IMG/VR virus record: IMGVR_UViG_3300005663_001084
Coordinates: 88,929-152,928 of that record
Direction: 5' to 3' (one strand)
DNA length: 64,000 bases
From: a virus
Below are positions 16,230 through 52,280 of the stretch, one piece after another (positions within the stretch are counted from its first letter, which is position 1; the number at the start of each line of letters is the position of its first letter). The notes under the pieces are model-generated. The model saw nothing but the letters and a program-made list of their open reading frames with translations. It had not been told where the DNA came from and searched no databases. The position numbers and the translations under genes were made by a program.

Positions 16230-16242
16230 AGTCTACCCCAAC

Positions 16243-17742: not shown

Positions 17743-17745
17743 GGC

Positions 17746-36123: not shown

Positions 36124-36331
36124 GACCGCGCTCCTGCCGGTAGACCGGACTGAAGCCCAGACGGACGTATAGGTAGTCGGTCGACTCCACGTCTTCAGAG
36201 CCAACGCTGGCCCGCTCGAACGGAAGCTCCGTGCCCTGGAGGACCTGCTTGCCCTTCTCGAAGTAGGTGTCGCTGTAGTCGTATTCCCGGAAGGGGATGA
36301 CCTCGGCAGTTTCCAGTTCGGTGTTAGCCAT
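36116..36331 (-). CDS. small hypothetical protein
   Basis: Start set at MANTELETAEV; the ATG overlaps the upstream TAA. Confidence 0.3.
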   Translation of the reverse strand: MANTELETAEVIPFREYDYSDTYFEKGKQVLQGTELPFERASVGSEDVESTDYLYVRLGFSPVYRQERGRG

Positions 36332-38393: not shown

Positions 38394-38957
38394 TTAGACC
38401 TCCGCCGTGACCGTTGGCCGTGGCTTTGCGCCGTAACCCGCGCGCTTCAGTTCCGATGCGATGTTGTTGATCCAGAACGGCAGCGCCCGCAGGGACGCGT
38501 CCAGGTGTTTGCAGATCGTGCCGCGCAAGCGGGGATTCCGGATGCCTGGGAAACGCTTCTCGTTCCCGCCGCTGGTGTCTAGCTGAGTGAGCACGTAGTT
38601 GTAACCCCAGTACTGGAACGCCGGGCAGTCGCAGTGGACCTTCAGATCGCCTGAGACTGCTAGGTTGACCTTCTGCGGCAGTGTGAGTCCTTCCGACTCC
38701 AGGGCTTCCGGCAGGTCCTGGAGGACAATCGTCTGGTTCCAGCGGTACCGGCCCTGCCCCGTTTCTGACGGAGTCGTGAACATAATCCGGTCGAACTCGG
38801 TGCCCTCGTACTTCGTCCCGCCCAGCTTGCGGATTGCCGCCGCGTGCTGAGCGTGGTGGATGAAGTCCGGATCGACGCCCCGGAGGATGGACTGGTAAGT
38901 CTCCTCGTTAAGCGCCGCTCTCAGGGCACGTTCGACTGATCCACGTAGAGCATTCAT
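38394..38957 (-). CDS. SWIM-type zinc-finger protein
   Basis: HCDCPAFQYWGYNY...GTICKH fits the CxC-x(n)-CxH motif. Confidence 0.4.
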   Translation of the reverse strand: MNALRGSVERALRAALNEETYQSILRGVDPDFIHHAQHAAAIRKLGGTKYEGTEFDRIMFTTPSETGQGRYRWNQTIVLQDLPEALESEGLTLPQKVNLAVSGDLKVHCDCPAFQYWGYNYVLTQLDTSGGNEKRFPGIRNPRLRGTICKHLDASLRALPFWINNIASELKRAGYGAKPRPTVTAEV

Positions 38958-39520
38958 ACACGTTGGCCGCTGGCGCTCCTCTCGGGTGCCTGGGAGGGAC
39001 GCGCAGCGGGCTGCTGCTGCTGCTGCTGCTGCTGCGGTGGCTGAGCCTGTGGCTGAGCGACGCGCTTGCGATACTCCAACTTCCCGGTCGACCTGCCCGA
39101 GCGCGGGTTCTTGCCCTTCTTCAGGTGACCCTTCTTGAACATGGCGCGGATCTGGCCCGGGTGGCCGGTCACCGTTCCCGGCTTGCGTCCCGGCCCCTCG
39201 TCGAGATTCTCGTCGAAGCGGATCTCGTTGCCCGCAATGGCGGCCTCGATAGCCCGGTTGTTGACGTGGTAGTGCTTGCTGTTGTCCTTCGCACAGGAAA
39301 ACACCATCCAGCCGGACGCCACGTCGCTGACCACGTAGTCGCCCGCCGGGAGCGTCTCCTCGGTATCGTAGTCCCTGAGGACGCCGTCCCGCGTGACGAT
39401 CAGCGAGTCACCCTTGTTGAGGCCCTCAACCATGGGCTGGCCGCCTAGCATCAGCAAGACCGCGTCCGGGGCGTCCACGCCTTCGTTGTACAGGAGGGCG
39501 CGTTGTTTGGCTGTCAGCAT
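38954..39520 (-). CDS. hypothetical protein with polyglutamine tract
   Basis: QPQAQPPQQQQQQQQPAARP encoded by a (CAG)8-9 tract. Confidence 0.45.
   Translation of the reverse strand: MLTAKQRALLYNEGVDAPDAVLLMLGGQPMVEGLNKGDSLIVTRDGVLRDYDTEETLPAGDYVVSDVASGWMVFSCAKDNSKHYHVNNRAIEAAIAGNEIRFDENLDEGPGRKPGTVTGHPGQIRAMFKKGHLKKGKNPRSGRSTGKLEYRKRVAQPQAQPPQQQQQQQQPAARPSQAPERSASGQRV
39010..39036 (-). repeat. (CAG)8-9 trinucleotide repeat encoding polyQ
   Basis: GCTGCTG... x9 on the plus strand inside 38954..39520. Confidence 0.8.
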
Positions 39521-39583: not shown

Positions 39584-39838
39584 CTAAGTCTTGCCAGACG
39601 CAGGCTGTGGGACCCTTTCCGCCTGGGGCGGCGTGACGCGCATCTTCTCGAACGCGTCCGCGTAGATCTTCAGGTTGCCCCGGCAGGCCTCGTTTTCCTG
39701 CTCAAGCTCCTTGATCCGGGGCCTGAGCATGGCCCTGAAGTAGATCGCCACCAGGATGGCGATAGCCAGACAGGTCAGGAATCCCGCCACGTACGCGAAG
39801 CCCAGGACGCCCCAGGTGATCTCGATTTCTGCCAACAT
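39584..39838 (-). CDS. small single-pass membrane protein
   Basis: Start set at MLAEIEITWGVLGFAYVAGFLTCLAIAILVAIYF with GGAG SD. Confidence 0.45.
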   Translation of the reverse strand: MLAEIEITWGVLGFAYVAGFLTCLAIAILVAIYFRAMLRPRIKELEQENEACRGNLKIYADAFEKMRVTPPQAERVPQPASGKT

Positions 39839-39849: not shown

Positions 39850-40986
39850 CTACTTTGTGGCTTCCACTACGGCAGACAGATTCCGCCGCGTGTGGTACCG
39901 ACTGTTGTCCGGAAGCTGGCCCGTCTCTGAGAAACCGGCCTCCCGGCAAAGATGACTGATCGATTCGTAGTCGTACCCGTACTGGTGGCCATACTCACCC
40001 ATGCCCACGAGGTTGTCCATGAACTTGTCCGCCAGTGTCGGACCCTTCCAGATCGGGTTCTCCGATGGCTCGTAACGCTGGTCCCACCACTCCTCATCGC
40101 CCGCCAAATACTTCTCGGCCGCGAGTCGCAGATCCGGGATCGAGGCCACCAGCTTTGCGCCCGGCTTGAGGACCCGGCAGATCGACTTGACCACCTTGAG
40201 CCCGTCCACCCGAGGGATGTGCTCCAGCATGTGCTGGCAGACCGCGAAGTCCACGGAGTTGTCTCCGAACGGGAGACCGTCCTTCACGACATCGCGCAGG
40301 ATGTACCTACTGCGATTCCGCGTCACACCTGAAGCGGGCCAGATATCCAGTCCAGTGAATCCCTCATAGCGGCTGCCCCGGCCACCGCATCCTACGTCGA
40401 TCATCAGATCCATGCTCATGTCCTGGATGCGAGCAAACCCCATGGACTGCACGATTCCTGCCTCCACGGTTCGCTTGTGCGGAATGACGAAGTTATGCCA
40501 CGCAGACCACACGTCCTCAAAGACTGAGCGGCAGTCGTGAGCCGCGATCATCCCCCCAGACGCGACTTTGGGAAGCCACGCTTGGAAGTCCTTCAGCGGG
40601 TTGCCTCTCTCGTGGTTACCGTCGATGAAGATCAACGCGGCGGACTTCACCTTGGCAACTGCGTCTACGGACGGAAGTCGGTGAACAGTAAAGTCTTTGC
40701 CGCGCTCCAGGCCGCAGGCGTCCATGTTGTCCAGAAAATCGTTGAAGACCTCATAGCCACTTTGCTCACCAAAGGGCTTGGACCCGTCGATCCAAGGATC
40801 GACGCAGATCAGATGACGGCCCAATTCCTGACACACGACACCGAACTGAGACGCCGAACGTCCCTTGTAGCAACCAACCTCGACGACAGGGCCGTCAACA
40901 CGAAGGCGGCGGACCCAGGCTTCCAACTGGGTCATCTGGGGCTCGGCCATGTGCCCAGGAACATCTTCGGGTTTCAGCGTGGCCAT
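39850..40986 (-). CDS. bifunctional class I SAM methyltransferase (TylF-like O-MT domain plus Methyltransf_11-like domain)
   Basis: PVVEVGCYKGRSA (motif I, macrocin-O-MT-like) and MIDVGCGGRGSRYEGFTGLD...VDFAVCQHMLEHI. Confidence 0.6.
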   Translation of the reverse strand: MATLKPEDVPGHMAEPQMTQLEAWVRRLRVDGPVVEVGCYKGRSASQFGVVCQELGRHLICVDPWIDGSKPFGEQSGYEVFNDFLDNMDACGLERGKDFTVHRLPSVDAVAKVKSAALIFIDGNHERGNPLKDFQAWLPKVASGGMIAAHDCRSVFEDVWSAWHNFVIPHKRTVEAGIVQSMGFARIQDMSMDLMIDVGCGGRGSRYEGFTGLDIWPASGVTRNRSRYILRDVVKDGLPFGDNSVDFAVCQHMLEHIPRVDGLKVVKSICRVLKPGAKLVASIPDLRLAAEKYLAGDEEWWDQRYEPSENPIWKGPTLADKFMDNLVGMGEYGHQYGYDYESISHLCREAGFSETGQLPDNSRYHTRRNLSAVVEATK

Positions 40987-41657
40987 AGATTTAGTGCCTC
41001 ATACAGTCGAGTCAGTCGAGGTAAACTGGCGATTAGATCCTTGATGTAGCGAATTGTATCTGGGTGCCAGTGGTCGGGTCCAGGCAGTTGTCGCCGGTCA
41101 CGAGTTGCGTTCCGATCAATGTCCCAGTTGATACGGCCCACATCGATTTCCACACCGAGGTGCTTTGCGAGCTTCTGTAGTCCTTCAGGAGTCGTGTATT
41201 CTGTGAAACTCCAGTGCGTGAACTGTAATCCCAACTGGTGCGCCAAAGAGACCGACGCCTCCAAGTCACCAAAAAGCGCAGCAGCGCAGCGACGTAATTG
41301 GGAGTTCAACAGGAACTCACGTGTACTCCGCAGCGACTCTTTCGGACACCCGGAACGCAGGCAGTCCAGCGGGTTACGCCATACAAAGTTCCATTGAGGA
41401 TGAACGGCCTCATCAATCTCCCGCATAAACCCACGTGCAGAGTTGTTAGACATGCCCACGACAGGTGCGTCAAGCTGTACCCAACCCTGAAACCCTTGTG
41501 GCCAGAAGCACTCTATCGGTGTGTTGTCACCTCGACCAGGACTCCAGGTGAATGGCTCGTGGACGACAATGGCGTTCTCACCCTGATTGAGCATATTTGC
41601 CAGGAACATCGTTCCTGATCGACCCGCCCCAGTTAGTACAAAATATCGCTTGTTCAT
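40974..41657 (-). CDS. sulfotransferase family protein
   Basis: Start set at MNKRYFVLTGAGRSGTMFLANML (P-loop-like PAPS-binding motif). Confidence 0.5.
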   Translation of the reverse strand: MNKRYFVLTGAGRSGTMFLANMLNQGENAIVVHEPFTWSPGRGDNTPIECFWPQGFQGWVQLDAPVVGMSNNSARGFMREIDEAVHPQWNFVWRNPLDCLRSGCPKESLRSTREFLLNSQLRRCAAALFGDLEASVSLAHQLGLQFTHWSFTEYTTPEGLQKLAKHLGVEIDVGRINWDIDRNATRDRRQLPGPDHWHPDTIRYIKDLIASLPRLTRLYEALNLWPR

Positions 41658-42358
41658 GCTTCGGGATTTTCCATGACAAAAAGACACGAGGTGAACGGGG
41701 GCTTGTGCGGTTTGTGGCAGAAGTCGGCCCCGTCCAAACTGAAATCGTAGGGCTCCACGAGTTTGCACCCGCTCGGAACAATAAGACGCTCGAACAGCGC
41801 CGTCTCGTCGTAGATCCTGCTTCCCGGCCTGCCTCCGAGGCGATGACCGATCTCCGTTCCGATGATGACCTTCCCGCCGGGCTTGCAAATTCGGCCCATT
41901 TCACGGGCTGCTTCGATATCCCCGTTTCCGATGATGTGCTCGATGGCCGAGAGCGAGATTACCACATCGAAACGTCCGTTCGGATAGCTGAGGTTCTGCA
42001 TATCCTGAATTTCGCAGGTAAGCCGCTCCGGGAACTCGGCCATCTTCTCCCACGTGGCGCGCCACGTGTCCAGGCCTCCAAGATCCCAGCCCATAAAGTT
42101 GTCACTGACGACAGCCATGCTCGCGACCGAGGTCAGATAGGACATCAGAAAAGAACCGCGCGCTCCGAGTTCGCAGACAGACAGGCCAGTGAAGTCGACC
42201 TGAGCCAGAAGCAGCGCACAGTCGTACCATCGTCCGGCCGTGGGGTGTCCGCAGTCTTCGGTCGCCCACTTCCTGTACTCTTTGCAGAGTCGATCCACCT
42301 GGGGATGTTCGGCCCGCGTCTGCGCCATGCGAAAAGACTGGTTGAGCGTTGTCGTCAT
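41654..42358 (-). CDS. class I SAM-dependent methyltransferase
   Basis: VCELGARGS motif I; FDVVISLSAIEHI. Confidence 0.55.
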   Translation of the reverse strand: MTTTLNQSFRMAQTRAEHPQVDRLCKEYRKWATEDCGHPTAGRWYDCALLLAQVDFTGLSVCELGARGSFLMSYLTSVASMAVVSDNFMGWDLGGLDTWRATWEKMAEFPERLTCEIQDMQNLSYPNGRFDVVISLSAIEHIIGNGDIEAAREMGRICKPGGKVIIGTEIGHRLGGRPGSRIYDETALFERLIVPSGCKLVEPYDFSLDGADFCHKPHKPPFTSCLFVMENPEA

Positions 42359-43026
42359 GCTCCGTCGTTCCGGACCTCTCTACCCTTCCGGGCGCAATAC
42401 ACCTGATGGTACATGTTTGGCTCGACAAACCTCGGGTCCCACTGCGGAACTTCACGATACCACTCAAGCCGGAATTCAGCCCGGCGCAACAGGTAGATCA
42501 CCGTAGACGGGTCTGCACAGAACAGGTGTGTCTTGAAGAAACCGAATCGTCTCATACCCCTTCCCGCGATGCCGTCGCGTTCGGGCATGACGATGACGAC
42601 CCATCCGTCGGGCTTCAGGACCCGGAAGAACGTACGCAAGGCGATATACGGAGCCGGGCTGTGCTCCAGGATGTGGCTGGCGAAGACCCCGTCCAGACTG
42701 CTATCCTCGAAAGTCTCCAGCTTGTGCATCTCGTCCAACACGGCGTGGACACCATGCTCAGCAGCGTGATCAACGTCTTCCTGGCAGATCGACACGCCCG
42801 TGACATTCTTGTAGATCTTACCCAACTCTCGCGTCGAGTACCCTCCCGCAATGCCGATATCGACGACCGATTCGCCGTCGCGAGGGAGGAAGCTGTGAAT
42901 CAGGTCCTTGGCCGCCAACACCGTGTCCGTACGGCCGCGCGCCTTGATGCCATCGAATTTCTCGATGTTGTCGTGGTTGGTCTGGACAGTGTGGTCCAGG
43001 TAGGGATCGAGATCCAGACTCGGCAT
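42355..43026 (-). CDS. class I SAM-dependent methyltransferase
   Basis: VVDIGIAGGYSTREL; LDGVFASHILEH. Confidence 0.55.
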   Translation of the reverse strand: MPSLDLDPYLDHTVQTNHDNIEKFDGIKARGRTDTVLAAKDLIHSFLPRDGESVVDIGIAGGYSTRELGKIYKNVTGVSICQEDVDHAAEHGVHAVLDEMHKLETFEDSSLDGVFASHILEHSPAPYIALRTFFRVLKPDGWVVIVMPERDGIAGRGMRRFGFFKTHLFCADPSTVIYLLRRAEFRLEWYREVPQWDPRFVEPNMYHQVYCARKGREVRNDGA

Positions 43027-44025
43027 TTACCTTATCCTCTTCACCAGGGTGTGGAGCGTGCGCGCGAACTCGATGTTGGAGAACTTCGCGGTCACATACA
43101 AGGCGGCCTGGAGCGCAATCGCCTTGCGCTTCTCCGGATTCTCTAGGTAAAATCGAACTTTCTCAACCAGTTCGTCGAGAGAGGACCATACGTCGAGGTG
43201 CTCTCCCGGCGTGAAGTCTAGCTCGATGCCGTTCACTTTGTCGCAGAGCATGAAGCCACCCGACCCGAGGCAATGGATCAAACGCTCGTTGTAGTAGCGC
43301 AACCCGTCCGGCCGAACGTGACTGTTCAGGTTGATGGCACAAGTTCTGTAGAACAGGGTATTCGAGTCTGGGTGCACGAAGCCCCCGTAATGCGCCTTGT
43401 CAAATGCGATGCCTTTGCGCCCCCACCCCCCGGATTTCTGATCCCAGTGGCCGAACGCCATGAAGTCGAAACCTTCGCGAATGAGCCGATCCGCGATGGT
43501 TGGCCGGTCCGCGTACATCTTCGGAAACTCGCTCATTCGGTACGCATTTCCGGCCATAAAACTGACATCACACGCCCATGCGGGATCGTACGTCATCAGA
43601 TCATAGGCTCCAGCTTTTACGTTGACCGGAGGGTAGGCCAGAGCCGCCGGTTGCCCTTCTTTCTCGTACCGGTCTACCGAGTCCTGGCAGCAGGTCAGCG
43701 TAGCGCTACACGCCCTGCGTACAGGAGACCCAGCCTCCTCGTAGTTCGGATCGTCCACGGTCCAGTAAACCGTCGGAACCTGGGTTGTCACCCACTGAAC
43801 GATATTGAGCGGCATCTCTCTCTTGGGGTTCCAAAAAAGAACAGCGTCGTAACACGAAGGCTTTGAGTCGCGGACAAGATCGAATACCTGATCATGGTCA
43901 TGTGTGTTCTGGAAGACCCGTCGAGGGAGGCACGACTCGACCTCGTCGCCGAACAGTTCCAGACCGTGAACAGCAGACTTGAGACTCTGCGCCACACGAT
44001 TTCCGCCTATTGTGAGAATCTTCAT
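43027..44025 (-). CDS. glycosyltransferase, CgeB-like (GT1-like C-terminal domain)
   Basis: Start set at MKILTIGG with GGAGG SD; C-terminal RFYLENPEKRKAIALQAALYVTAKFS. Confidence 0.5.
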   Translation of the reverse strand: MKILTIGGNRVAQSLKSAVHGLELFGDEVESCLPRRVFQNTHDHDQVFDLVRDSKPSCYDAVLFWNPKREMPLNIVQWVTTQVPTVYWTVDDPNYEEAGSPVRRACSATLTCCQDSVDRYEKEGQPAALAYPPVNVKAGAYDLMTYDPAWACDVSFMAGNAYRMSEFPKMYADRPTIADRLIREGFDFMAFGHWDQKSGGWGRKGIAFDKAHYGGFVHPDSNTLFYRTCAINLNSHVRPDGLRYYNERLIHCLGSGGFMLCDKVNGIELDFTPGEHLDVWSSLDELVEKVRFYLENPEKRKAIALQAALYVTAKFSNIEFARTLHTLVKRIR

Positions 44026-44041
44026 CCACCCTCCAAACAGA

Positions 44042-44623
44042 TCAGACCAGTTCGATTTTGATGTAGGTGCCGCGCTCGGCACCCTTCTCCATATCTTTGG
44101 CCAGGACCTGCTTCTGGTCGTAGTCTCGTTCAAGCCACTGCTTCGTGTCGTCTTTGATCCAGCCCAGCCGGACCAGGATGTCGACGAGTCCCTTGGCGCT
44201 CCCCGCTGCGAGATTCTCCTCGTCGACCAGAAGCTGCCGGTGCGACACCAGCGTGAGCTTGACCCGCTGCTCAACGCGCCGCACGGACCCGAAAGATTCC
44301 TTCTCCAGTGCCCGGTAGGCTGCCCCCTTGTCACGAACCCGCAGATGAGGCGACTGGTGGTAGCGGTTGACCGACCGGCAGTGGAAGTCCAGGAAGGTCT
44401 CCAGCGGATACTCCCCTGGCTTCAGGTCCTTGTTCTCCGGGTACCGAAACTCCTTGCTCCGTACGTTGGACGTCTTCTTTTTCTTCGCTGGCTTCGGTTC
44501 GGCGAGCTTCTTTTTGCCCTTGTCGCACCGGGGACAATCACTGTCCTTGATCTTCTCCAGGTTGATCTTGACCGCCCCGCCGCAGCGCGAGCAGGTTCCA
44601 TCCACATACTTACCCAGAGGCAT
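44042..44623 (-). CDS. rusA: RusA-like Holliday junction resolvase with N-terminal zinc ribbon
   Basis: CSRCGG...CPRC; SVNRYHQSPHLRVRDKGAAYRA and LVDEENLAAGSAKGLVDILVRLGWIKDD can be aligned to RusA motifs (NRYY...AYR; DLDNL...DAL..G.W.DD). Confidence 0.6.
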   Translation of the reverse strand: MPLGKYVDGTCSRCGGAVKINLEKIKDSDCPRCDKGKKKLAEPKPAKKKKTSNVRSKEFRYPENKDLKPGEYPLETFLDFHCRSVNRYHQSPHLRVRDKGAAYRALEKESFGSVRRVEQRVKLTLVSHRQLLVDEENLAAGSAKGLVDILVRLGWIKDDTKQWLERDYDQKQVLAKDMEKGAERGTYIKIELV

Positions 44624-47031
44624 CAGGGCCTGTACCTCGCCCGGCCTCGGCGAGCCGCCGGGTGGTCCGGATCGGGTTTGTCAGGGCGTACGCCCTGATT
44701 CGGCTTTGCAGCGCGAGACCAGCCGCCAAACAGGCCTGACTCGCCTTCCGTAGAAGCACCTGTGGCGCGACCAAGTGTCTGAGTCGCAGGCTCGTCCGCT
44801 GCGAGAGCGAGGAAGTGGTCCAGGGTTTCTTTCGCCCCGGCCACATGCTTATCGTTCAGGTCCACCGCGTGCTCGCGGCAGAGAGTCTTGAGCTTCTCCA
44901 GGTCGAACGTGGGCGCGGAGATCTCTTGCAGTTTCTCCGCCACCTGTTCGGCCGAGTTCGGATCGACCCACAGGTGCCGTTGGAGAAACTCGTCTTTGTA
45001 GGCGTGGGCAGGCGTCGTAGACGGACCGATCACCGGCACACCCAAGAGCAGCGCCTCAATCGAGGCGTACGAAAAGGTCTCTGAGTGGCTCAGATGGACC
45101 ATGGCGCTGCACGTCTGAAGCATCCGGCGCACGGCCTTGGAGTCGTGGAGGTTGAACGACGCGAACGCGCACATCAGATGCGTCAGAAAAGCGTCGATCT
45201 CTTTGTCCCGAAGAAGCCACTGCGAGATATTCGCGTGCAAGCCTGCGCGAGCAATTCCGGCAAGGGCCACCAAGAGATTCTTGCGAGGGTGCGTCGGTCC
45301 AAGAACCGCCACCATGAACTTCGGCGGCAGATACGGTTCCACACGGGGAGCGACCTGTTCCAGCGGCGGGCGAAGCGCTTCACCTCCGACCGTGCACGGC
45401 AGCCACCGAAACCGGTCGGCCGGATACTGCGTCAGCAAGTGCTGGTAGGTCGCGGCGTCGTCCTCATAGGAGGTAACCATACCACCTATCCGGTCGGCGC
45501 GGACCAGAGCCGTCAGGTCGATCCATTCTTGAATCTCTTTCGGCTCGAACGCCATCTGCGAGAGGTGCGAGCACCAGGAAACCACCGTACGCTTCGGGAA
45601 GCTCTTCGCGATCCTTTGGGCCATCGGCTGCTTGAGCGAGCCGCTGAACAAAAACAAGTCGTAGTCCGCCGTGTCTACGCGTTGAATCGAATGGATCGTG
45701 GTGTAACCGCAGCCGGTGACCTTGGCGAGGCTCCGGCACATGCTCTGTACACCCGGACCTCCGGCCGAGACCACGAGCACCCGGCGACGCGGCAGGACCT
45801 CCAGGATCTTTGGAACCACGTCTTCCATGCGATGTTGGTGCGCGTAGGGCGTCTCGGCATGGAACCCGTCCGTGAACGCATCCCAGTCATCCTGGACGTT
45901 TCCGCACAGGATATTGTCCAGGGCGTCTTCCCAGATCTTGATAGGCGCAGTCTGCGGGACGACCACGCCACCTGGACCCAGCATGCTGTTTTCCGGCGGG
46001 TCGTACAGCCCTTCCCGCCGACGCTCCTCGTGGTACTCCCGATCCGGAACCATCGCCCGGTCGAGCACGATGTTCGGCAGGTTGCCGTTGTCCGTGCAGA
46101 GCACCGGGCAACCGGACAGGCGAGCCTCGACAGCCACGCGGCTGAACGTCTCGGCCGTCAGCGTCCCGATGAACACGCACTTGGCCTTGGCGTAGACCCC
46201 GGCCATGTCGTCTGTCCACCTGAGAACCTCGACGTTCGGCCTGCGGACGCAGGCAGCGATCTCGTTCTTGTGGTGAGTCCGCTCGTACTCGGTACTCAGG
46301 ACAGCGAACTTCTCGTCCTGGAAGTGGTCAGCCAGAGCCAGGAACCGGCGCAGACCCTTGAGCGCCTGCACCGAGGTCATCAAGACGTACTCCCGCTCCA
46401 GGTAATGAGGCGCATCCTTGGCGATAGATCGCGGAGAGTGGCCCGGGAACGCGATCATGGGTTTGCGCCCCAGAGTCCGTTCCATGACGTTGGCCGTGAA
46501 GTAGCTGTTGGCGATCAGGATCTGGTGATTCGCCACGGCCTGGACGCCTTCCTCATTGGAGTCGGCTTCCGCAGGCACGCCGTAGCGTACGAGATCATTG
46601 AACTGACACCTGGATAGCTCGCCTCCGTGAAGCTGCTGGTCCTCCTTGTGGACGTGCAGGAAGTCCAGCCAGAACTGAACGTAGTGAACCGACGGAATGT
46701 GGAGGGCCTCGGCGACGTGGGCCGACTGAACGGCCGTGCCGGAGCCTCGCGACATCAGGATGTCCGGCCGGATCTTGACGGCGGCCTCGCGCAGGCCGCC
46801 CTCGGCAATCTTCATCGGCGTCACGCCGTCCGGCAGTTTGACCTTGCCGTCGTAGTGGCCACGATGGTAGACGCAGAAAACCTCGCAGCCGTGCTTGACG
46901 AAAGCCTGGGCGAAGTCCTCGCCACTAAGCTCGCCGCCTCCCAGACCGTGTCCGAACGACTTGGAAAACAGCATAACGACGGGCTTCTCCCGTCTTGGGG
47001 GCATAACGGGACTAACGAGGATACTGTCCAT
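44623..47031 (-). CDS. large tandem GT-B (GT4-like) glycosyltransferase
   Basis: PVVMLFSKSFGHGLGGGE; ETFSRVAVEARLSGCPVL; SETFSYASIEALLLGVPVIG (EX7E motifs). Confidence 0.6.
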   Translation of the reverse strand: MDSILVSPVMPPRREKPVVMLFSKSFGHGLGGGELSGEDFAQAFVKHGCEVFCVYHRGHYDGKVKLPDGVTPMKIAEGGLREAAVKIRPDILMSRGSGTAVQSAHVAEALHIPSVHYVQFWLDFLHVHKEDQQLHGGELSRCQFNDLVRYGVPAEADSNEEGVQAVANHQILIANSYFTANVMERTLGRKPMIAFPGHSPRSIAKDAPHYLEREYVLMTSVQALKGLRRFLALADHFQDEKFAVLSTEYERTHHKNEIAACVRRPNVEVLRWTDDMAGVYAKAKCVFIGTLTAETFSRVAVEARLSGCPVLCTDNGNLPNIVLDRAMVPDREYHEERRREGLYDPPENSMLGPGGVVVPQTAPIKIWEDALDNILCGNVQDDWDAFTDGFHAETPYAHQHRMEDVVPKILEVLPRRRVLVVSAGGPGVQSMCRSLAKVTGCGYTTIHSIQRVDTADYDLFLFSGSLKQPMAQRIAKSFPKRTVVSWCSHLSQMAFEPKEIQEWIDLTALVRADRIGGMVTSYEDDAATYQHLLTQYPADRFRWLPCTVGGEALRPPLEQVAPRVEPYLPPKFMVAVLGPTHPRKNLLVALAGIARAGLHANISQWLLRDKEIDAFLTHLMCAFASFNLHDSKAVRRMLQTCSAMVHLSHSETFSYASIEALLLGVPVIGPSTTPAHAYKDEFLQRHLWVDPNSAEQVAEKLQEISAPTFDLEKLKTLCREHAVDLNDKHVAGAKETLDHFLALAADEPATQTLGRATGASTEGESGLFGGWSRAAKPNQGVRPDKPDPDHPAARRGRARYRP

Positions 47032-47111: not shown

Positions 47112-47816
47112 TCACCCACCCAGCAACTTATTCAGGTCTTCCGACTCTCCGTCCTTCTCCAGATCCGCCATGATCTTGTCCACGGGCACGCCCATGGATC
47201 GCGCAGTCGCGATGAGTCCCGGCAGATCTTTGGCATCGAGACCGAGGGCTCTAATCTTATTTTCGAGTAGAGGAGCGTATTCCGATAGGCCTTTTTGGGA
47301 AGAATGTGAAATTTTTTCTTCGGCCTTCACCATATCCGGCTGATCGCGACGCGACGCAAGCCGGTTTTCAACACCTTTGATGATGTTTTGAACAAGGTCA
47401 TTCACCATGCCGAGGGGCAGACGGCCGCTATGCGGCTGGATCAGCCGAGCCACGTCATCGCGGACATCTCGGCAGATCTGGCGGATCTGGACTGGGTCCA
47501 GGCGGAGGCTCGACATCGCCCCCATGGACCGGAGCAGCTTCTCCACCTCGCGGATGATGTACATGAGGTAATTATCGCGACTCAGGCGGCCCTGGACCAC
47601 GTGCTGCGTAACCCGGGTAATGTCGCCCTGGAACCGGCGCACCCGCGTACGGATGATGTGTCCCTGGGGATCGGTGAGTACACCGGGAGCCTGCTTCTGC
47701 TCAGCCTTGTCCTCTTCGTTGCGAGGCTTCCTGAGCAGCTTCTTGGCTTGGTAGTTGTGGAACCACTGCTTGGCCTTGGAAGCCTCCTGGCCCCAGACCG
47801 TCTTGCCTTGCGACAT
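47112..47816 (-). CDS. hypothetical protein (possible scaffold/assembly protein; purely positional)
   Basis: 234 aa ORF immediately after the portal candidate. Confidence 0.3.
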   Translation of the reverse strand: MSQGKTVWGQEASKAKQWFHNYQAKKLLRKPRNEEDKAEQKQAPGVLTDPQGHIIRTRVRRFQGDITRVTQHVVQGRLSRDNYLMYIIREVEKLLRSMGAMSSLRLDPVQIRQICRDVRDDVARLIQPHSGRLPLGMVNDLVQNIIKGVENRLASRRDQPDMVKAEEKISHSSQKGLSEYAPLLENKIRALGLDAKDLPGLIATARSMGVPVDKIMADLEKDGESEDLNKLLGG

Positions 47817-47819: not shown

Positions 47820-49520
47820 TCACCCAGCTTTCTTGCGCTCTTCCTGGCCTTCTTCGTTTTGACCGCCAGACTTCTCGTTCATTTTCTCAACCTCTTCCTG
47901 CTTCTGTTCCTTGGTCCGCTTGTCGTTCTTGATCTGCTCCCGGATGTCCAGGGGCAGATGGATGACTTTCGACCCGACCTGCCAGGGCTTCTGACGCTCA
48001 CGGGCCTGATCCTCGTCCAGGGCCTTCTTGACCGCGTCGCTCTGCATCGCCTTCTCAGCGACCTCTTCCGATGGAACGCCCTGCTTCTCCAGTTCCTGCA
48101 TCGCGCGCAGCACCACATCGGTGAAGCTGCGACTGAACACGCCGAGTTCGGTCAGGATGACCTGCATCCAGGTGGCCGGGTCGATGTTGATCGTGGTGCC
48201 GATACGGGCCATGTTGTCGAGCGCCCGGATGCGCGCGTCCATGACTTCGAGGCGGTAAAGCTCTTCCAGGCTGCTGGGCGGCACCATGTTGAGCGTAAAC
48301 TGGTTCTCTTCCGTGTACGGGTCCACGCCTTTGTAGATCATGTGGATCATGCACAACTGGGCGGCCTCGCTCAGGAACACGCGCTGCGAGGTGGCGGCCT
48401 GCCGAGCGAACCGCAAGTCCTGCTGGCTCGGGCTGCGCTCGTAGTTGGCGTTGCCGCCGTCGAAACCGAAGTAGGCCGGGGGCGCACGGAGCGCGCCGAA
48501 CATGCGATTGAGGAACATCTCGAAGTCGCGCAGGTCGTCCAGGCCCTGAACGCCGCTGAGGACCTCGATATTTGTGTTGTCCTTTTCCCGGACCCCGATG
48601 AACAGGTCCTCGTGCTCGCTCAGGAGCGTGTAGACCGAGGCGAAGTCGCGCGTGGACGTGTCAAACCGGAAGTCCCGCTTGATGCTCTGGCGATGCTTCT
48701 CGATCTTGCGGTCCGCGTCGATGGCCGGGAGGCCGGACGTATCGACCTTGTGCAAGTAGCGATTGGGCAGGCGGAGCAACCGCATCAGCGCCAGCTTGTC
48801 CTCCATCATCTGGACCTGTCGCCAGATCCGCCGCGCGCCGTAGAGCACCGAGGTGCCGTACATGCGGCTGTGGTTGCGGCCGAGGCGGCGGAAGTGCAGG
48901 AAGTCCCACGGCTTCGTCAGAAGCTGCTCGTCCTTGACCTTGTAGGCCTGACCACCCCAATACATCGAGTCCTCGGTCTGGTAGGGTGTGAAGCCCTTCA
49001 GGCGTCCGTACTCGTCGTGGACGCGGGTGACCGTGGCCGGGTGGTACGGGATCAGGCGTGTGACGCCTTCCTTCTGCTCGCCAACGATGAACTCCCACCA
49101 TTCGCCGTACTTGTCGGTCTGGCGGATGATCGGCTGAGGGAGGTTGTTGGCGAGGCCCGTCTCCCGGAGCATGTCGTTACACATGCGCTCGACTTCGGGG
49201 TTCTGAGCTTCGCACCAGACGACAACGCCGTGCCGCGTGTCCCGCTGCGTGGCGTCTTCGGAAAGCTGTTCGAGGTAGCTGTAGATGGTCGGGTCAAGCT
49301 CCATCTCGTCGTACAGCGTGTAGAGCAGGCCGCGCTCCTCCTCGAACTGGAGAAGCTGGTTGTACATCTGGGCGATGGGGTTGGGCAGGCGGCCCATCGG
49401 GACTTCGACGCCCATAGCTCCCGGGAACGGAAGCGTGAGCGGATCGCGGGACAGGAACTTGTCGAAACCAAACATCCGCAGGATGTAGGTCTGCGGGTCC
49501 CAGATCATTTTCCTAGCCAC
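47820..49520 (-). CDS. portal protein candidate
   Basis: 566 aa, directly downstream of and overlapping TerL; charged EK-rich C-terminus. Positional/size argument only. Confidence 0.45.
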   Translation of the reverse strand: MARKMIWDPQTYILRMFGFDKFLSRDPLTLPFPGAMGVEVPMGRLPNPIAQMYNQLLQFEEERGLLYTLYDEMELDPTIYSYLEQLSEDATQRDTRHGVVVWCEAQNPEVERMCNDMLRETGLANNLPQPIIRQTDKYGEWWEFIVGEQKEGVTRLIPYHPATVTRVHDEYGRLKGFTPYQTEDSMYWGGQAYKVKDEQLLTKPWDFLHFRRLGRNHSRMYGTSVLYGARRIWRQVQMMEDKLALMRLLRLPNRYLHKVDTSGLPAIDADRKIEKHRQSIKRDFRFDTSTRDFASVYTLLSEHEDLFIGVREKDNTNIEVLSGVQGLDDLRDFEMFLNRMFGALRAPPAYFGFDGGNANYERSPSQQDLRFARQAATSQRVFLSEAAQLCMIHMIYKGVDPYTEENQFTLNMVPPSSLEELYRLEVMDARIRALDNMARIGTTINIDPATWMQVILTELGVFSRSFTDVVLRAMQELEKQGVPSEEVAEKAMQSDAVKKALDEDQARERQKPWQVGSKVIHLPLDIREQIKNDKRTKEQKQEEVEKMNEKSGGQNEEGQEERKKAG

Positions 49521-51507
49521 GGGCTGCGTTCCTTTCTGTCATCATGTTTCGGACGTGCTGTAGAATCACGTCCTCGTGGGCCATCTCTTGGATCTCAGTC
49601 GAGACCATGAGCGTGCCCAGGTTCTCGTCTTTCACGCATAGGTATACCGCACCGCATAGGGAGTCTGCAACATCTTTGCTGCCGCCCTCCGGGTGATCGA
49701 CCTTGCCCGCATCGATATCGTCTTCCAGGGACAGCAGTTCGTCGACCAGGACCTCGTTCGGGGCGTGCGAGAGGCGCATCTCGTTGTAGACCGTCTTGAG
49801 GACTTCGTAGGGCTCCTTCTTTTTATCGACGCTCAGGTACTGGGTTCCCGTGAAGCCCGCCTTCTGAAGCTGCTGGATCGTGTCCGGACTGGCTGGGGAG
49901 TCCACGCCGATCTTCTCAAGCTGGAACCCGTGCCCCGCCAGCCAGTAGACGAACTCGCGGACCTTTCCCCAGTCAATCTCGGTCAGTTCCTGCTTGATCT
50001 GGATCGAGAAGTCAGACGCGATAATCAGTTCGGTCCGGCGAATGATGTCGCCGTTCTTGTCGCGGTCCGGCCTCGACACGGCCCGGGTCGGGTGGACCAT
50101 GGAGATCCCGAGCGCGTCTTCCGTACGCCCCAGGTCGATGTGCAGGTATCGCGGAGCGTGCGGGAAGTTCCGGGGCACCGTCCGGCTGTTCCGGGTCGTA
50201 AACATCCTATCCAGGTCGATGAAGTCCTGGATCTGGTCGGCAGTCTCCAGGTCGATGCGAATGGGCTTACCTACGACCGCGCCCATCCCCTCGATGAACG
50301 GATGACTGAACTCCGGCAATTTGTTGAGCGCCTTATCAACCACGGCCGAGCGGGGGAAGAACGGCATGATCTTGTCAGTCGCGATGCCCGCAATGTCCCG
50401 GGACGCACCCAGGGGATCTTCCTCGAACGCGCGGTGGTGCTCAACCGGGATTTCGATGGTCCTGCCGCCAAGGGGGGACTTCTCGTCGTCAGTGAGAATC
50501 TTCGGGTCCTTGAACTTGTTGCCCACGAAGAAGCGGAACTTAGCGCCTGTGTAGCGATCATCCGGCTGGAACTCCCAGCGCGCACCGTCGACGATGTGGA
50601 CGCCGGGCTTGCCCGCGATCTCTTTCTTGCGAAGTTCCAGGTAGCTGGTGGACGACTTGGCCGACGACAGGTGGAGCAGGATACCCGGGTTCTCCCCCCG
50701 GTGTGCGAAGCGCGACTCCAACCGACGTGCGGTTGCGTTCACCATCTCGTGGACCTGCCCCTTGTCGCTCATCTTCTTCGCGCGGGCCTGCTTCTTGGTG
50801 ATCCGCATGAAGTTCATTTCGTCGATGGCGATGCCGAACAGGTGGTGGCCCATGACGTGGAAAGCCTGCGAGCCCACCATGACGTGGATGTTCTTCGGGA
50901 ACTTGAATCCGTCTTTGCCCTCCGCCTCGAAGGGGAAGACCTCCTTGAAGTACGGACTCTTCTCCAGCAGGCCGCGCATGGACTCCACGCCAACGTCGGT
51001 CAGTTTCAGCGTGGCGTTGTACAGACCGAACGTAATGCGGCTCTCGTCGAACTGGCCATGGAACTCGGCCGGGCGGCGCAGGCAGCTAAGCCGGTAGATC
51101 TTGTATAGCATGATGATCATCGCGGCCGTGGTCTTGCCGACGCCGATGGCACCGCTGAACACGACCTCGTAGATCTTGTTGGCCGGAGTGCAGATGTAGG
51201 CGATCTCTTTCCGCCACCGAGGCCAAATGCTCCCGTAGAAGTTCCCCAGATACAGGTCGTTCTGCATGAACTCCTGAATCTCTACAGGGTCGCGCTCGTA
51301 ATCGACCTGGGTGAGGTAATCCAGGGCGACCGACTTTCCGCCGTTGATGATCTCGGTGAACGCGCGAAGAAGGTAGGCCTTCTGAACCTCGTCCATGCGA
51401 TCAAACATGGCAGCGAGCTTCGGATTCTCCAGTTCGAGGAGGTTGCGGATCTCGTCGTCCGTAAACTCGACTGGAGGTGCTTCGGGCTGTAGGACTGTCT
51501 CGCCCAT
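49513..51507 (-). CDS. terminase large subunit
   Basis: Walker A VFSGAIGVGKTTAAMI; C-terminal nuclease-like IDLGRTEDALG; start set at MGETV (SD GGAGAGG, TAATG coupling). Confidence 0.7.
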   Translation of the reverse strand: MGETVLQPEAPPVEFTDDEIRNLLELENPKLAAMFDRMDEVQKAYLLRAFTEIINGGKSVALDYLTQVDYERDPVEIQEFMQNDLYLGNFYGSIWPRWRKEIAYICTPANKIYEVVFSGAIGVGKTTAAMIIMLYKIYRLSCLRRPAEFHGQFDESRITFGLYNATLKLTDVGVESMRGLLEKSPYFKEVFPFEAEGKDGFKFPKNIHVMVGSQAFHVMGHHLFGIAIDEMNFMRITKKQARAKKMSDKGQVHEMVNATARRLESRFAHRGENPGILLHLSSAKSSTSYLELRKKEIAGKPGVHIVDGARWEFQPDDRYTGAKFRFFVGNKFKDPKILTDDEKSPLGGRTIEIPVEHHRAFEEDPLGASRDIAGIATDKIMPFFPRSAVVDKALNKLPEFSHPFIEGMGAVVGKPIRIDLETADQIQDFIDLDRMFTTRNSRTVPRNFPHAPRYLHIDLGRTEDALGISMVHPTRAVSRPDRDKNGDIIRRTELIIASDFSIQIKQELTEIDWGKVREFVYWLAGHGFQLEKIGVDSPASPDTIQQLQKAGFTGTQYLSVDKKKEPYEVLKTVYNEMRLSHAPNEVLVDELLSLEDDIDAGKVDHPEGGSKDVADSLCGAVYLCVKDENLGTLMVSTEIQEMAHEDVILQHVRNMMTERNAARG

Positions 51508-52280
51508 TACCTCTCCCTCTTGAGTTGCCTCCGCCGGATGACCGTCTTCAGGTGCCGGGGCACCTTCCACTCCAGCAGGCCATCGGAGATACTGTCGATC
51601 TCGGACATGGAGACCTCAGGGAAGCGGGCCTTGAGCCACCGCCGCGTAGCGCCCAGGGCGGCGAACGCCCAGACGAGGTCTGACTTCTTGCGGCCGGTGG
51701 GGCTGCCGATGATATCGAGCAGGGTAGCGGGCGTGTGGCCCTTGCAGTCGAACTCGTTACGCACGCTGTCGTGAATGATGTTTGCAATGAGTCCGTTTCG
51801 GGTACGCCACTTCTGGACACGCTGGTGGTGGCAGCCCATGACGCAAGCGATAGCGCAGTCGCTCCAACCTTCCTCCCACATCTTACGGAAGAGTTTCTCA
51901 TCAGTCCCAAAACGGCGCTGCTTGCCCGTGGGGATGTTCAGCTTCTTGAGCCAGCGCTGGATCGTACACAGAGACACGCCGATGCGCACGGCAAGCTGCT
52001 CATCCGTGAGATCGGCACCTTCTTGGATGACGAGATCGCGGATCTGCTGCGCGATGGAAATGAACAGGACCTGACTGGCCTGAGCGTGGTTGCGCGAGAC
52101 GTTGAGCCGCGCCCTCATGTACCAGACGGTCGAATGAGGGACGTCGAGCCTTCTGGAAAGTTCCCGCTTGCTCGCGTGCGGGTGCCTCTCAAGTACATCC
52201 AGAAGACGCTGCTCAAGCTCTTTTCTCTCCTCCGGCGTCCGGTGGCGATTCTGCAATCTGCTGGTGGCTGTTGCCTCCAT
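51507..52280 (-). CDS. HTH DNA-binding protein, putative terminase small subunit
   Basis: Several HTH-like segments (LSRRLDVPHSTVWYM; VRIGVSLCTIQRWLKKL); directly upstream of TerL. Confidence 0.4.
   Translation of the reverse strand: MEATATSRLQNRHRTPEERKELEQRLLDVLERHPHASKRELSRRLDVPHSTVWYMRARLNVSRNHAQASQVLFISIAQQIRDLVIQEGADLTDEQLAVRIGVSLCTIQRWLKKLNIPTGKQRRFGTDEKLFRKMWEEGWSDCAIACVMGCHHQRVQKWRTRNGLIANIIHDSVRNEFDCKGHTPATLLDIIGSPTGRKKSDLVWAFAALGATRRWLKARFPEVSMSEIDSISDGLLEWKVPRHLKTVIRRRQLKRER

Follow-up and report, generated by a model that had tools for sequence, protein, structure and literature searches.

Beside the portal and terminase genes of an uncultured tailed phage of ~225 kb, known from the Loki's Castle marine-sediment metagenome, we find six enzymes of glycan assembly and tailoring that are compositionally foreign, horizontally acquired cargo, occupying slots on either side of a resident gene for a RusA-like Holliday-junction resolvase. 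Homologous modules recur within the head/packaging gene blocks of three different phage architectures. We give an even chance to the reading that these enzymes glycosylate virion proteins in the cytoplasm, the glycan then receiving methyl and sulfate caps. The window, i.e. the whole stretch of DNA analyzed here (64,000 nucleotides), contains the following features around the locus, in transcription order:

49513..51570, minus strand: large terminase subunit (TerL; phrog_2, 2.5e-10; AT skew 0.131, backbone-like)
47820..49520, minus strand: T4-type portal protein (Pfam Portal_T4, 3.4e-41; phrog_213, 6.5e-35; backbone)
47112..47816, minus strand: conserved 234-aa protein with no assigned function (homologs after the portal gene in L004 and L001)
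44623..47031, minus strand: tandem GT4-type (GT-B) glycosyltransferase (GT), 802 aa (cargo, upstream slot; Pfam)
44042..44623, minus strand: Zn-ribbon, basic linker and RusA-like Holliday-junction resolvase domain (resident backbone gene)
43027..44025, minus strand: CgeB-like GT (cargo, downstream slot; Pfam Glyco_trans_1_2)
42355..43026, minus strand: class I SAM methyltransferase (MT) 'MTb' (Pfam Methyltransf_11, Methyltransf_23)
41654..42358, minus strand: class I SAM methyltransferase 'MTa' (Pfam Methyltransf_11, Methyltransf_25)
40974..41657, minus strand: divergent PAPS-type sulfotransferase (ST), 227 aa (family profile and fold)
39850..40986, minus strand: fused double methyltransferase (MT-fusion; Methyltransf_24 N-domain, Methyltransf_11/23 C-domain)
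39584..39838, minus strand: 84-aa single-pass membrane protein with coiled-coil tail (sequence reading; 49% identity to an L004 gene)
38394..39520, minus strand: two conserved backbone genes (188 aa and 187 aa; homologs in L001, L002 and L004)

The seven open reading frames of the cluster, from the tandem GT to the MT-fusion, are all present on the minus strand where the initial annotation had placed them, and its location beside the packaging genes is borne out by the Portal_T4 and phrog_2 matches directly upstream, with just the 234-aa gene in between. All six junctions are overlaps or short gaps: a 1-nt overlap between the tandem GT and RusA-like genes (TGATG), a 16-nt gap containing GGAGG before the CgeB-like gene, a 0-nt gap before MTb (TAAATG), an ATGA overlap at each of MTb/MTa and MTa/ST, and a 13-nt overlap between ST and MT-fusion. 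Therefore, the earlier statement that the cluster is translationally coupled throughout holds. The short starts of the CgeB-like (44025) and ST (41657) genes agree with the N-termini of their homologs, and none of the seven proteins has a transmembrane segment.

The variable locus has clear edges. Upstream, it is bounded by the 234-aa protein, which is matched in none of the family searches (Pfam, PHROG and others) and is 54% identical in L004 and 28% in L001, the loci to which the portal is 79% and 61% identical, respectively. The 329-nt 'gap' after the last cluster gene contains the gene for the 84-aa membrane protein, which has no match in the family search; its L004 counterpart is a 69-aa gene at the same position, and within this sublineage the cargo ends, on its downstream side, with this membrane-protein gene. 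The genes for the 188-aa and 187-aa proteins (AT skew 0.255 and 0.163) constitute the downstream edge; in L001 and L002, their homologs (37–77% identity) come straight after the RusA-like gene, and in L004 after the cargo. Because the genes past the cargo lack an assigned function, only the terminase and the portal justify the label 'head module' here. The window contains no major capsid gene; a 514-aa capsid candidate proved to be a KVP40-type hypothetical protein and was rejected.

Both GTs and all four MT domains proposed from the sequence score far over the Pfam gathering cut-offs. The tandem GT (Glycos_transf_1, 1.7e-16; Glyco_trans_1_4, 3.1e-15) is matched over two stretches (aa 233–324 and 631–704) and comprises two catalytic modules with EX7E motifs at aa 294–302 and 651–659, the first of which is kept in 8/8 aligned homologs. 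Its weak matches to characterized families are nearly all enzymes with lipid, sugar or small-molecule acceptors (CapJ, EpsE, TuaC, MshA, BshA), SdgA (E 0.012) being the sole protein O-glycosyltransferase among them. The CgeB-like GT matches Glyco_trans_1_2 (4.9e-20; 72 bits against a cut-off of 25), and its homologs carry the UniRef name 'Spore protein YkvP/CgeB'. MTb matches Methyltransf_11 (3.5e-16) and Methyltransf_23 (6.9e-15), and MTa Methyltransf_11 (1.9e-8; 35 bits, cut-off 21) and Methyltransf_25 (3.6e-7). The MT-fusion indeed has two MT domains in one reading frame (Methyltransf_24, 7.8e-18, aa 35–152; Methyltransf_11, 6.3e-11, aa 197–280); as its C-terminal half (aa 192–378) shares 57% identity with an MT of 191 aa that stands alone in L004, the N-domain is a fusion.

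The ST and the Zn-ribbon RusA-like protein had been named from motifs alone, and both assignments are upheld at the level of family profile and fold only; as single sequences, neither has a direct match in Pfam, NCBIfam, PHROG or PDB sequences. A failure of the ST motifs in profile searches, which the initial annotation had regarded as fatal to its proposal, thus formally applies to the single sequence, but is overturned by family profile and fold. The ST family is small (~44 representatives among 1.84 billion). Its members resemble PAPS-dependent sulfotransferases (Sulfotransfer_3/TPST/heparan-sulfate 3-OST, NST; PDB 3rnl, 5wri, 3bd9, 1nst) at 10–20% identity, and the window protein, unlike those known families, scores under the Pfam thresholds.

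The RusA-like gene had been considered an odd passenger of the cluster, which is the wrong way round. It is found in 9/9 related contexts and has a backbone-like composition (coding AT skew 0.226); it is the conserved resident and fixed point of the locus, while the glycan genes are variable cargo around it. Compared to RusA of E. coli and lambdoid phages (PDB 1q8r; PF05866), the window protein has an additional N-terminal Zn ribbon and a lysine-rich linker, and no member of its family matches PF05866. The equivalent of RusA D72 is Glu in the window protein and Gln or Val in its relatives; it is Ala in two annotated Xanthomonas-phage RusA proteins, too. Whereas RusA belongs to a replication/recombination module, the RusA-like gene adjoins portal and terminase, and its product probably clears branched DNA for packaging.

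By contrast, coding AT skew in the six glycan enzymes ranges from −0.024 to +0.017 (tandem GT, −0.001), whereas the backbone averages 0.136 (Mann-Whitney p = 1e-5). This difference shrinks at codon position 3 (p = 0.03) and may be partly due to amino-acid composition. The ST gene is the most foreign (GC3 0.548).

A synteny comparison with related phages, as initially recommended, shows that the corresponding locus there holds different sets of glycan-tailoring genes, in which sulfotransferases abound. In these relatives, where the RusA-like gene anchors the locus, the cargo includes transferases of the Maf-like, GT2 and GT29-like kinds, sulfotransferases of three families, pyruvyltransferases and methyltransferases:

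L001: GT2, MT21, epimerase, Sulfotransfer_2
L005: MptE-like/Maf-like, three sulfotransferases, two MTs, GT2
L009/L010: two MT21, radical SAM, MptE-like, pyruvyl transferase
L013: TylF, MptE-like, Sulfotransfer_4
L016: GT29-like, two MTs

Not one gene is shared by the type A and type B cassettes despite 61% portal identity. The cassette is swappable, its gene content being shuffled among related phages.

In unrelated phages, homologs of the tandem GT (27–30% identity), the CgeB-like GT (36–40%) and MTb (36%) are grouped together, and those of both GTs and two methyltransferases travel together. Five HK97-type loci (L018, L019, L020, L022, L063) have the module flanked by the major capsid gene on one side and the head-tail connector on the other, although homology identifies only the portal-protease-capsid side in L020 and L022; in L021, it lies between terminase and portal. 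The tandem GT is homologous to GTs adjoining the capsid genes of L018 (881 aa; 30% identity over aa 1–737) and L019 (920 aa; 27% over aa 14–675), the CgeB-like homologs (36–46% identity) likewise reside in head modules, and MTb shares 36% and 33% identity with the MTs that neighbor the CgeB-like gene in L019 and L021, respectively. The co-traveling homologs and the sulfotransferase-rich sets strengthen the original proposal of a pathway for a methylated and sulfated glycan. Among its three candidate substrates, gene context favors virion proteins.

In virion glycosylation, the cluster would be transcribed with the head and packaging genes as a single translationally coupled unit and, we infer, share their timing. 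Its soluble enzymes would work in the host cytoplasm, where both tandem GT4 modules and the CgeB-like transferase could add about three sugars from host NDP-sugars to virion proteins, probably head proteins. The glycan would then be capped by the SAM-dependent methyltransferase domains, four at most, and the single PAPS-dependent sulfotransferase, and the particle would gain a lineage-specific glycan coat. Among the cluster genes, family searches found none for a flippase, a polymerase, an initiating phosphoglycosyl-transferase or export. Late-operon insertion sites often hold morons of unrelated function, which we count against this scenario, as we do the lipid, sugar or small-molecule acceptors of nearly all the weak GT matches.

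Alternatively, the enzymes might work on a polymer of the host surface (LPS, capsule, EPS or S-layer glycan) while it is still on the cytoplasmic side of the membrane; host machinery would then export it, so that superinfection is blocked or progeny is kept from adsorbing to debris. Polysaccharides with sulfate, methyl and pyruvyl groups are characteristic of marine bacteria, and the GT4 modules are closest to capsule, EPS and teichuronic-acid enzymes (CapJ, 3.4e-5; EpsE, TuaC). The many glycosyltransferase genes of large marine cyanophages have been read as host-surface modification (PMC12801897). The closest cellular CgeB-like relatives occur in Latescibacterota, Gemmatimonadota and Planctomycetota genomes, but are more distant (24–31% identity) than those of phages (36–46%). 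As membrane-anchored enzymes, lipid-carrier transferases, flippases and polymerases are absent from this and all related cassettes, and the module recurs specifically within head/packaging blocks, we consider envelope remodeling unlikely. The ST fold fits glycan sulfation and protein-tyrosine sulfation alike and cannot tell them apart. It seems decidedly improbable that there is no common glycan, with the ST sulfating tyrosines and the MTs methylating virion or host protein residues independently of both GTs.

We regard it as very improbable that the GTs glycosylate modified bases of the phage DNA against restriction, with RusA and packaging genes nearby because DNA is the substrate. Glycosylated DNA is a familiar feature of phages (T4; Pyle 2024, cited in PMC12619734). 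The tandem GT has a weak Pfam GT4-conflict match (26.5 bits, cut-off 26), but this spans just 42 residues around the generic EX7E motif; the N-domain of the MT-fusion matches a PHROG labeled DNA methyltransferase (1.1e-14), but PADLOC gives no defense or counter-defense match beyond generic methyltransferase similarity. Genes for nucleoside 2-deoxyribosyltransferase-like proteins (L001, L005) and NT5C (L002, L003) lie a few genes downstream in relatives, whereas no base-hydroxymethylase or other DNA-hypermodification gene was found adjacent. Furthermore, sister cassettes hold Maf-like, GT29-like, pyruvyl-transferase and NDP-sugar epimerase genes, which are typical of glycoconjugate tailoring, and sulfated, O-methylated or pyruvylated glycans on DNA are, to our knowledge, without precedent. 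Lastly, the foreign composition, above all of the ST gene, would suit a recently captured host fragment with no phage role, but this is hardly credible, given that every reading frame is intact and overlap-coupled, the catalytic motifs are intact, and the module is kept in relatives (46–86% protein identity) and recurs in other phages.

Virion glycosylation has parallels in other systems. Giant viruses, with the chlorovirus A064R-type GT-GT-methyltransferase enzyme and the mimivirus fibril glycosylation clusters, glycosylate capsid-associated proteins in the cytoplasm independently of the host, using methylated sugars, GT/MT fusions and clade-specific variable clusters. They are, however, eukaryotic viruses with different enzyme families; they do encode sulfotransferase-fold proteins (BFVD matches), a likeness shown for that fold rather than for the whole cluster. 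Bacillus subtilis CgeB/YkvP belongs to the same Pfam family as the CgeB-like GT, and CgeB has been linked to the glycosylation of the spore crust, an assembly of proteins, from within the mother cell; yet its sequence is very distant, the sporulation context is missing, and the DUF3880 N-domain match is not significant (E 0.099). Large marine cyanophages (S-SCSM1, P-SSM2, S-SCSM2R; PMC12801897) have 'cell wall synthesis and modification' islands and are also rich in GT and epimerase genes, with annotated sulfotransferases in S-SCSM1 and P-SSM7, but the islands are read as host-surface or DNA modification, have no tie to head genes and contain no close homologs of the window genes.

In mycobacteriophages of cluster O (Corndog-type), capsid and tail-tube proteins are modified by the products of an O-methyltransferase gene and of the three tandem GT genes that lie downstream of it (according to PMC11600133, citing Freeman 2023). 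As here, soluble phage-encoded GTs are grouped with an O-methyltransferase, there yielding a cytoplasm-made glycan. The window cluster differs in its additional sulfotransferase and four methyltransferase domains, in host and phage type (T4-type portal, ~225 kb, marine sediment), in that its acceptor is a predicted one, and in that its tandem GT, CgeB-like GT and ST have no tblastn match among 50,697 GenBank phages. Since the virion-glycosylation genes of F1 mycobacteriophages (Che8-type) sit outside the structural module (PMC11256854), position is an imperfect predictor of this function. If virion glycosylation is the true reading, the cluster is a new version of a process known from mycobacteriophages and giant viruses.

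All seven open reading frames of the initial annotation are present at exactly the coordinates it gave, and the tight packing it described is confirmed by the junctions between them. In transcription order, and together with the genes that border the variable locus, they are:

47112-47816, minus strand, 234-aa gene, upstream boundary of the variable locus
44623-47031, minus strand, predicted tandem GT4-type glycosyltransferase (802 aa)
44042-44623, minus strand, RusA-like protein (193 aa)
43027-44025, minus strand, CgeB-like glycosyltransferase (332 aa)
42355-43026, minus strand, predicted methyltransferase MTb (223 aa)
41654-42358, minus strand, predicted methyltransferase MTa (234 aa)
40974-41657, minus strand, predicted sulfotransferase (227 aa)
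39850-40986, minus strand, predicted methyltransferase fusion (378 aa)
39584-39838, minus strand, 84-aa membrane protein
38954-39520, minus strand, 188-aa backbone gene
38394-38957, minus strand, 187-aa backbone gene

The tandem glycosyltransferase and RusA-like genes overlap by 1 nt, the CgeB-like gene is preceded by a 16-nt gap containing GGAGG and followed by MTb with a gap of 0 nt, ATGA overlaps join MTb to MTa and MTa to the sulfotransferase gene, and the latter overlaps the methyltransferase fusion by 13 nt. A scan of 38.8-48 kb for Sigma-70 promoters and intrinsic terminators yielded counts equal to the shuffled expectation and therefore does not inform the operon boundaries. PADLOC returned generic methyltransferase similarity to mad2 only and no defence-system membership, and no genes for PAPS or NDP-sugar synthesis were found among the scanned window proteins. 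The 329-nt 'gap' after the last cluster gene holds the previously unnoticed small gene, which encodes a single-pass membrane protein with a coiled-coil tail, the sole membrane protein associated with the cassette. It is 49% identical to the product of 9668-9877 in L004, a related locus on another contig, and marks the downstream end of the cargo in both phages. As for the two backbone proteins beyond it, the 187-aa protein displays a C-x-C...C-x-H pattern (HCDCPAF...TICKHL) that resembles a SWIM zinc finger by eye only, with no Pfam match, and the 188-aa protein has a C-terminal tail that is rich in Q, P and S and includes eight consecutive Gln.

The tandem glycosyltransferase matches the Pfam families Glycos_transf_1 (60.7 bits, cut-off 26.4) and Glyco_trans_1_4 (57.1 bits, cut-off 27), each over two stretches. 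Its first module carries the EX7E motif ETFSRVAVE (aa 294-302), conserved in all eight homologues, and its second ETFSYASIE (aa 651-659), whose second Glu is conserved in five of the eight. It is thus predicted to be a GT4-type (GT-B) glycosyltransferase with two modules that transfers sugars from NDP-sugar donors. A further Pfam match, GT4-conflict, might have pointed to a DNA- or conflict-related function but was rejected as uninformative, for it covers 42 residues around EX7E and scores at the cut-off. The CgeB-like protein scores 72.4 bits with Glyco_trans_1_2 (PF13524; cut-off 25, E 4.9e-20), and this domain is present in all 22 of its homologues.

MTb and MTa exceed the gathering scores of Pfam Methyltransf families with 60.1 and 35.3 bits, and the fusion protein matches both Methyltransf_24 (65.7 bits) and Methyltransf_11 (43.2 bits), whereas NCBIfam matches for the methyltransferases all stay far below their cut-offs. 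Glycine-rich motif I is recognizable in the translations (DIGIAGG, ELGARGS, EVGCYKG, DVGCGG), and all three proteins are predicted class I SAM methyltransferases. The fusion of a Methyltransf_24 with a Methyltransf_11/23 domain is genuine, since L004 has a separate methyltransferase with 57% identity to its C-terminal half; the best solved relative of its N-terminal domain is PDB entry 6g7d. That these enzymes may O-methylate sugars is suggested only by the association of their genes with glycosyltransferases.

For the sulfotransferase proposed in the initial annotation, direct profile matching failed: the single sequence found no match in Pfam, NCBIfam, PHROG or the PDB sequences, and a word-indexed homologue search returned just one relative. 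What sustains the assignment is the family. Searched exhaustively with HMMER, a set of 1.84 billion representatives yielded 44 relatives; of 35 aligned relatives, 19 match Sulfotransfer_3 in Pfam (best 8.6e-9) and nine Sulfotransfer_1. Compared with the PDB, the family profile finds sulfotransferases in all its top 11 matches (TPST1/2, SgdX2, SULT7A1; best E 0.0047), and a sulfotransferase fold was confirmed as well. The conserved 5'-phosphosulfate-binding (PSB) loop G12-R13-S14-G15-T16 aligns with 'PRSGTT' of TPST1, and the conserved 3'-phosphate-binding (PB) motif with R94 (invariant), P96 and S102 aligns with 'RDPVQWHRS' of SgdX2. We accept the protein as a predicted, divergent PAPS-type sulfotransferase. 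H33/E34, which align with the Glu-Glu pair of TPST1 that contains the catalytic base, are candidates for this role. In P0001, the closest homologue (88% identical), the PSB loop reads GAGQSGT instead of GAGRSGT; R13, a supposedly key residue, may vary naturally, or the Gln may mark an inactive copy. A different, very divergent family member (L004 6036-6716, hmmsearch E 2.4e-6, GCGRSGT) directly follows the RusA-like gene of L004, the closest relative phage, and in the related locus L001, the gene at 6938-7573 encodes PSB- and PB-like motifs with no Pfam match.

The initial annotation had also identified a zinc-ribbon RusA protein. Although none of 14 family members matches the Pfam RusA family PF05866, even at E up to 10, this identity is borne out by profile-profile comparison: hhalign aligned the family with a reference alignment of E. 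coli RusA and nine annotated phage RusA proteins over 73 columns (probability 79.7%, E 1.5e-5), and a RusA fold was confirmed as well. The invariant residues N15, D70, K76, D80 and D91 of RusA align with N86, D134, K144, D148 and D159, likewise invariant in the family of the window protein. Of the catalytic residues D70, D72, K76 and D91 of E. coli RusA, D72 is the exception: its equivalent is E136 in the window protein and Q or V in its relatives, and D72 also varies among the sampled annotated RusA proteins. The N-terminus is a C4 zinc ribbon with a profile E of 4e-4 to RNA polymerase subunit P. The most plausible role of the protein is to resolve branched DNA for packaging, with which the constant position of its gene next to portal and terminase would agree.

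The surroundings of the cluster are phage-like. The roughly 70 genes of the window all lie on the minus strand, and among them are a T4-type portal, a large terminase, SbcCD-like nucleases and an array of 11 tRNAs. No nucleotide match to GenBank phages was found (blastn with the entire cluster against 50,697 of them), and the portal shares no more than 26-29% identity with portals of cultured phages. Against the same phages, tblastn gave zero matches for the sulfotransferase, the tandem glycosyltransferase and the CgeB-like protein, and a single insignificant one for the RusA-like protein. Two cluster proteins are 100% identical to 'hypothetical proteins' LCGC14_0165340 and LCGC14_0165330 from a marine-sediment (Loki's Castle) metagenome, both encoded on one 224,854-bp contig.

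Related loci were obtained via exact-protein look-ups; searches for such loci that started from the tandem glycosyltransferase, among viral contigs, or from the RusA-like alignment, among viral as well as metagenome contigs, gave pattern matches and zero confirmed relatives. RusA-like homologues with 47-79% identity were found in ten contexts from other samples, nine of which show upstream genes; in L017, the RusA-like gene is the first on its contig. Wherever the length of the contig allows, the order is constant: terminase, portal, 234-aa homologue, variable glycan genes, RusA-like gene, and homologues of the 188-aa and 187-aa genes. The content between these fixed genes differs from locus to locus. 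One set, type A, comprises the window, L004 and L015, and has no cargo in common with the other cassettes, type B, although the portals of the two are 61% identical. Among themselves, the type B cassettes are mosaics.

Cargo of type B cassettes at related loci
L001: GT2, Methyltransf_21, epimerase/dehydratase, Sulfotransfer_2
L005: MptE-like (Maf flagellin-glycosyltransferase domain), Sulfotransfer_1, _2 and _4, two methyltransferases, GT2
L009/L010: two Methyltransf_21, radical SAM, MptE-like, polysaccharide pyruvyl transferase
L013: Methyltransf_21, TylF, MptE-like, methyltransferase, Sulfotransfer_4
L016: GT29-like (weak match), two methyltransferases

Within type A, the tandem glycosyltransferase of the window is 85% identical to that of L004 and 60% to that of L015, whereas the CgeB-like protein is 86% identical to its counterpart in L015 and 46% to that in L004; judged by these identities, the genes on either side of the RusA-like gene have different histories. 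Composition separates the same two classes of genes. The coding-strand AT skew of the six glycan enzymes is about 0 (-0.024 to +0.017), while that of 28 backbone genes averages 0.136 (sd 0.067), every one of them above the cargo values (Mann-Whitney p = 1e-5), and the RusA-like gene is backbone-like with 0.226. GC3 is 0.548 in the sulfotransferase gene and averages 0.799 (sd 0.052) in the backbone. Taken together, the conserved order, the variable cargo and the composition argue that the RusA-like gene, previously labeled an odd passenger, is in fact the resident, and that two slots, one to each side of it, take up the glycan genes as exchangeable cargo. In one related phage lineage (L009, L010 and L011), the gene two places downstream of the RusA-like gene, about 590 nt away (for example 3597-5495 in L009), encodes an intein-containing protein of 632 aa (Pfam Intein_splicing) at the position that the 187-aa gene occupies in the window.

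Parts of the cassette recur in phages of quite different build, in which we found CgeB-like homologues with 36-46% identity. Five loci of HK97 type (L018, L019, L020, L022 and L063; GC 0.51-0.67 in the four measured) show the order portal, protease/scaffold, major capsid protein, a tandem glycosyltransferase of 881-967 aa, sometimes a methyltransferase, and a CgeB-like glycosyltransferase. In L018, L019 and L063, a small open reading frame lies between the major capsid protein and the tandem glycosyltransferase, and a head-tail connector gene follows the CgeB-like one. The tandem enzyme of the window is homologous to that of L018 over aa 1-737 (30% identity) and to that of L019 over aa 14-675 (27%), and MTb shares 36% identity with the methyltransferase of L019. 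In L021, the enzyme set is located between a GpA-type terminase and the portal and consists of methyltransferases related to MTb and to the C-terminal half of the fusion, a B12-radical-SAM enzyme, a CgeB-like glycosyltransferase and a GT9. The same enzyme kit has thus been inserted into head and packaging blocks of three distinct phage architectures. Relatives of the CgeB-like protein in bacterial genomes are more distant (24-31% identity). The bacterial contexts examined are from Methylosinus, Pseudoxanthobacter and Latescibacterota; the loci of Methylosinus sp. Sm6 and Pseudoxanthobacter (L023, L024) may be prophages.

What might such a kit make? None of the seven cluster proteins has a membrane segment, and a lipid-carrier transferase, flippase, polymerase or exporter is absent from every cassette examined. 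In the simplest model that fits, virion proteins, probably those of the head, would be glycosylated in the cytoplasm and the glycan capped with methyl and sulfate groups; for this model we see an even balance of belief and doubt. The two GT4 modules and the CgeB-like enzyme would perform about three sugar transfers, up to four methyltransferase domains would cap the glycan by O-methylation, and the sulfotransferase would sulfate it; in this scheme, we infer the acceptor, the donors, the timing of expression and the order of the steps. That glycans may be covalently attached to capsid or tail proteins is suggested only by gene position: at nine loci the genes adjoin those for head and packaging. 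Remodeling of the host envelope by the same enzymes is the most serious of the alternatives, but we consider it unlikely. Direct sulfation or methylation of proteins we regard as rather improbable; the fold of the sulfotransferase does not discriminate between a sugar and a tyrosine acceptor. Glycosylation of DNA seems highly improbable to us, and that the genes are inert cargo is hardest of all to credit. The major capsid gene is not in the window. A 514-aa protein (31488-33032) with the highest codon score was considered as major capsid protein and possible acceptor and rejected, as it matches hypothetical proteins of KVP40-like phages only and nothing in the PDB.

Phage particles are usually regarded as bare protein, and to our knowledge virion glycosylation has been shown only in a few actinophages, where it alters antibody recognition; the glycan machineries of giant viruses are a second precedent. 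Annotated sulfotransferases are present in viral proteomes. The clustering of phage glycosyltransferase genes with an O-methyltransferase gene is shared with virion glycosylation in mycobacteriophages: in cluster O, as summarized in PMC11600133, citing Freeman et al. (2023), one O-methyltransferase and three glycosyltransferase genes are linked to capsid and tail-tube modification. Sequence homology to the characterised Corndog and Che8 enzymes was not found, as tblastn of the tandem glycosyltransferase, the CgeB-like protein and the sulfotransferase matched no GenBank phage record. Large marine phages are known to carry groups of glycosyltransferase genes, which have so far gone unexplained (PMC12801897, PMC12619734).

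Several other genes of the window deserve mention. SbcC-like (53132-55384, minus; phrog_77, 4.5e-85) and SbcD-like (55724-56860, minus; phrog_100, 5.5e-28) genes lie upstream of the terminase so that, with the RusA-like gene, two DNA-structure nucleases flank the packaging genes. The tRNA array (60441-63998, minus) comprises Ser x3, Leu x3, Tyr, Ile-tat, Arg-tct, Lys and Gln, with small open reading frames between them. A 925-aa protein (57561-60338, minus) with matches to MVP_shoulder (5.8e-28), the Vault_3 repeat (1e-8) and Band_7/SPFH (5e-5) in Pfam and none in PHROG has the predicted architecture of a phage-encoded major-vault-like protein. A 273-aa protein of metallo-beta-lactamase fold (26915-27736, minus; Pfam Anti-Pycsar Apyc1, 6.4e-24, cut-off 50 bits), adjoined by an AAA ATPase gene (25467-26915), is likely a cyclic-nucleotide-degrading counter-defence factor. 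Genes for a dihydroorotate-dehydrogenase-family protein (22226-23200, minus; DHO_dh 4.8e-53) and an FMN_red-domain protein (35164-36204, minus; 4.4e-9) resemble the glycan cargo in their low AT skew and may be acquired metabolic genes. Finally, the compositionally odd region 11970-18000 (GC 0.56, AT skew about 0 in two of three 2-kb bins), whose 835-aa and 579-aa proteins have no Pfam match, may be another cargo island.

Four elements are new: a hypervariable, sulfotransferase-rich glycan island anchored beside the portal in a clade of jumbo phages, a mobile module of tandem glycosyltransferase, CgeB-like enzyme and methyltransferase that recurs beside capsid genes, a divergent sulfotransferase family, and a zinc-ribbon RusA variant linked to packaging genes; our literature search found no paper on any of them. 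A bolder reading, which we offer tentatively and with more doubt than confidence, is that the island is a virion 'serotype locus' of an uncultured sediment and aquatic jumbo-phage clade. Recombining in the two slots that flank the RusA-like gene beside the portal, it would give rise to sulfated, methylated, pyruvylated and possibly nonulosonic-acid-containing virion glycans, and the tandem GT4, CgeB-like and methyltransferase module would be a mobile capsid-glycosylation kit shared horizontally among the head modules of unrelated phages. The compact module beside the capsid genes of small HK97-type phages, the sulfotransferase family and the RusA variant are testable reagents.

If the cassette decorates virions, coats of glycan would be common among environmental phages, chemically rich in sulfate, methyl and pyruvyl groups, and exchanged in modules like the O-antigen and capsule loci of bacteria. 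This would bear on how phages adsorb and stick to marine particles and mucus, on evasion of recognition by hosts and grazers, on particle stability, and on how 'auxiliary metabolic' glycosyltransferase genes in viromes are read. Should the serotype-locus reading be true, glycan coats, among them the first sulfated ones, would be widespread on the particles of environmental phages and open to evolution.
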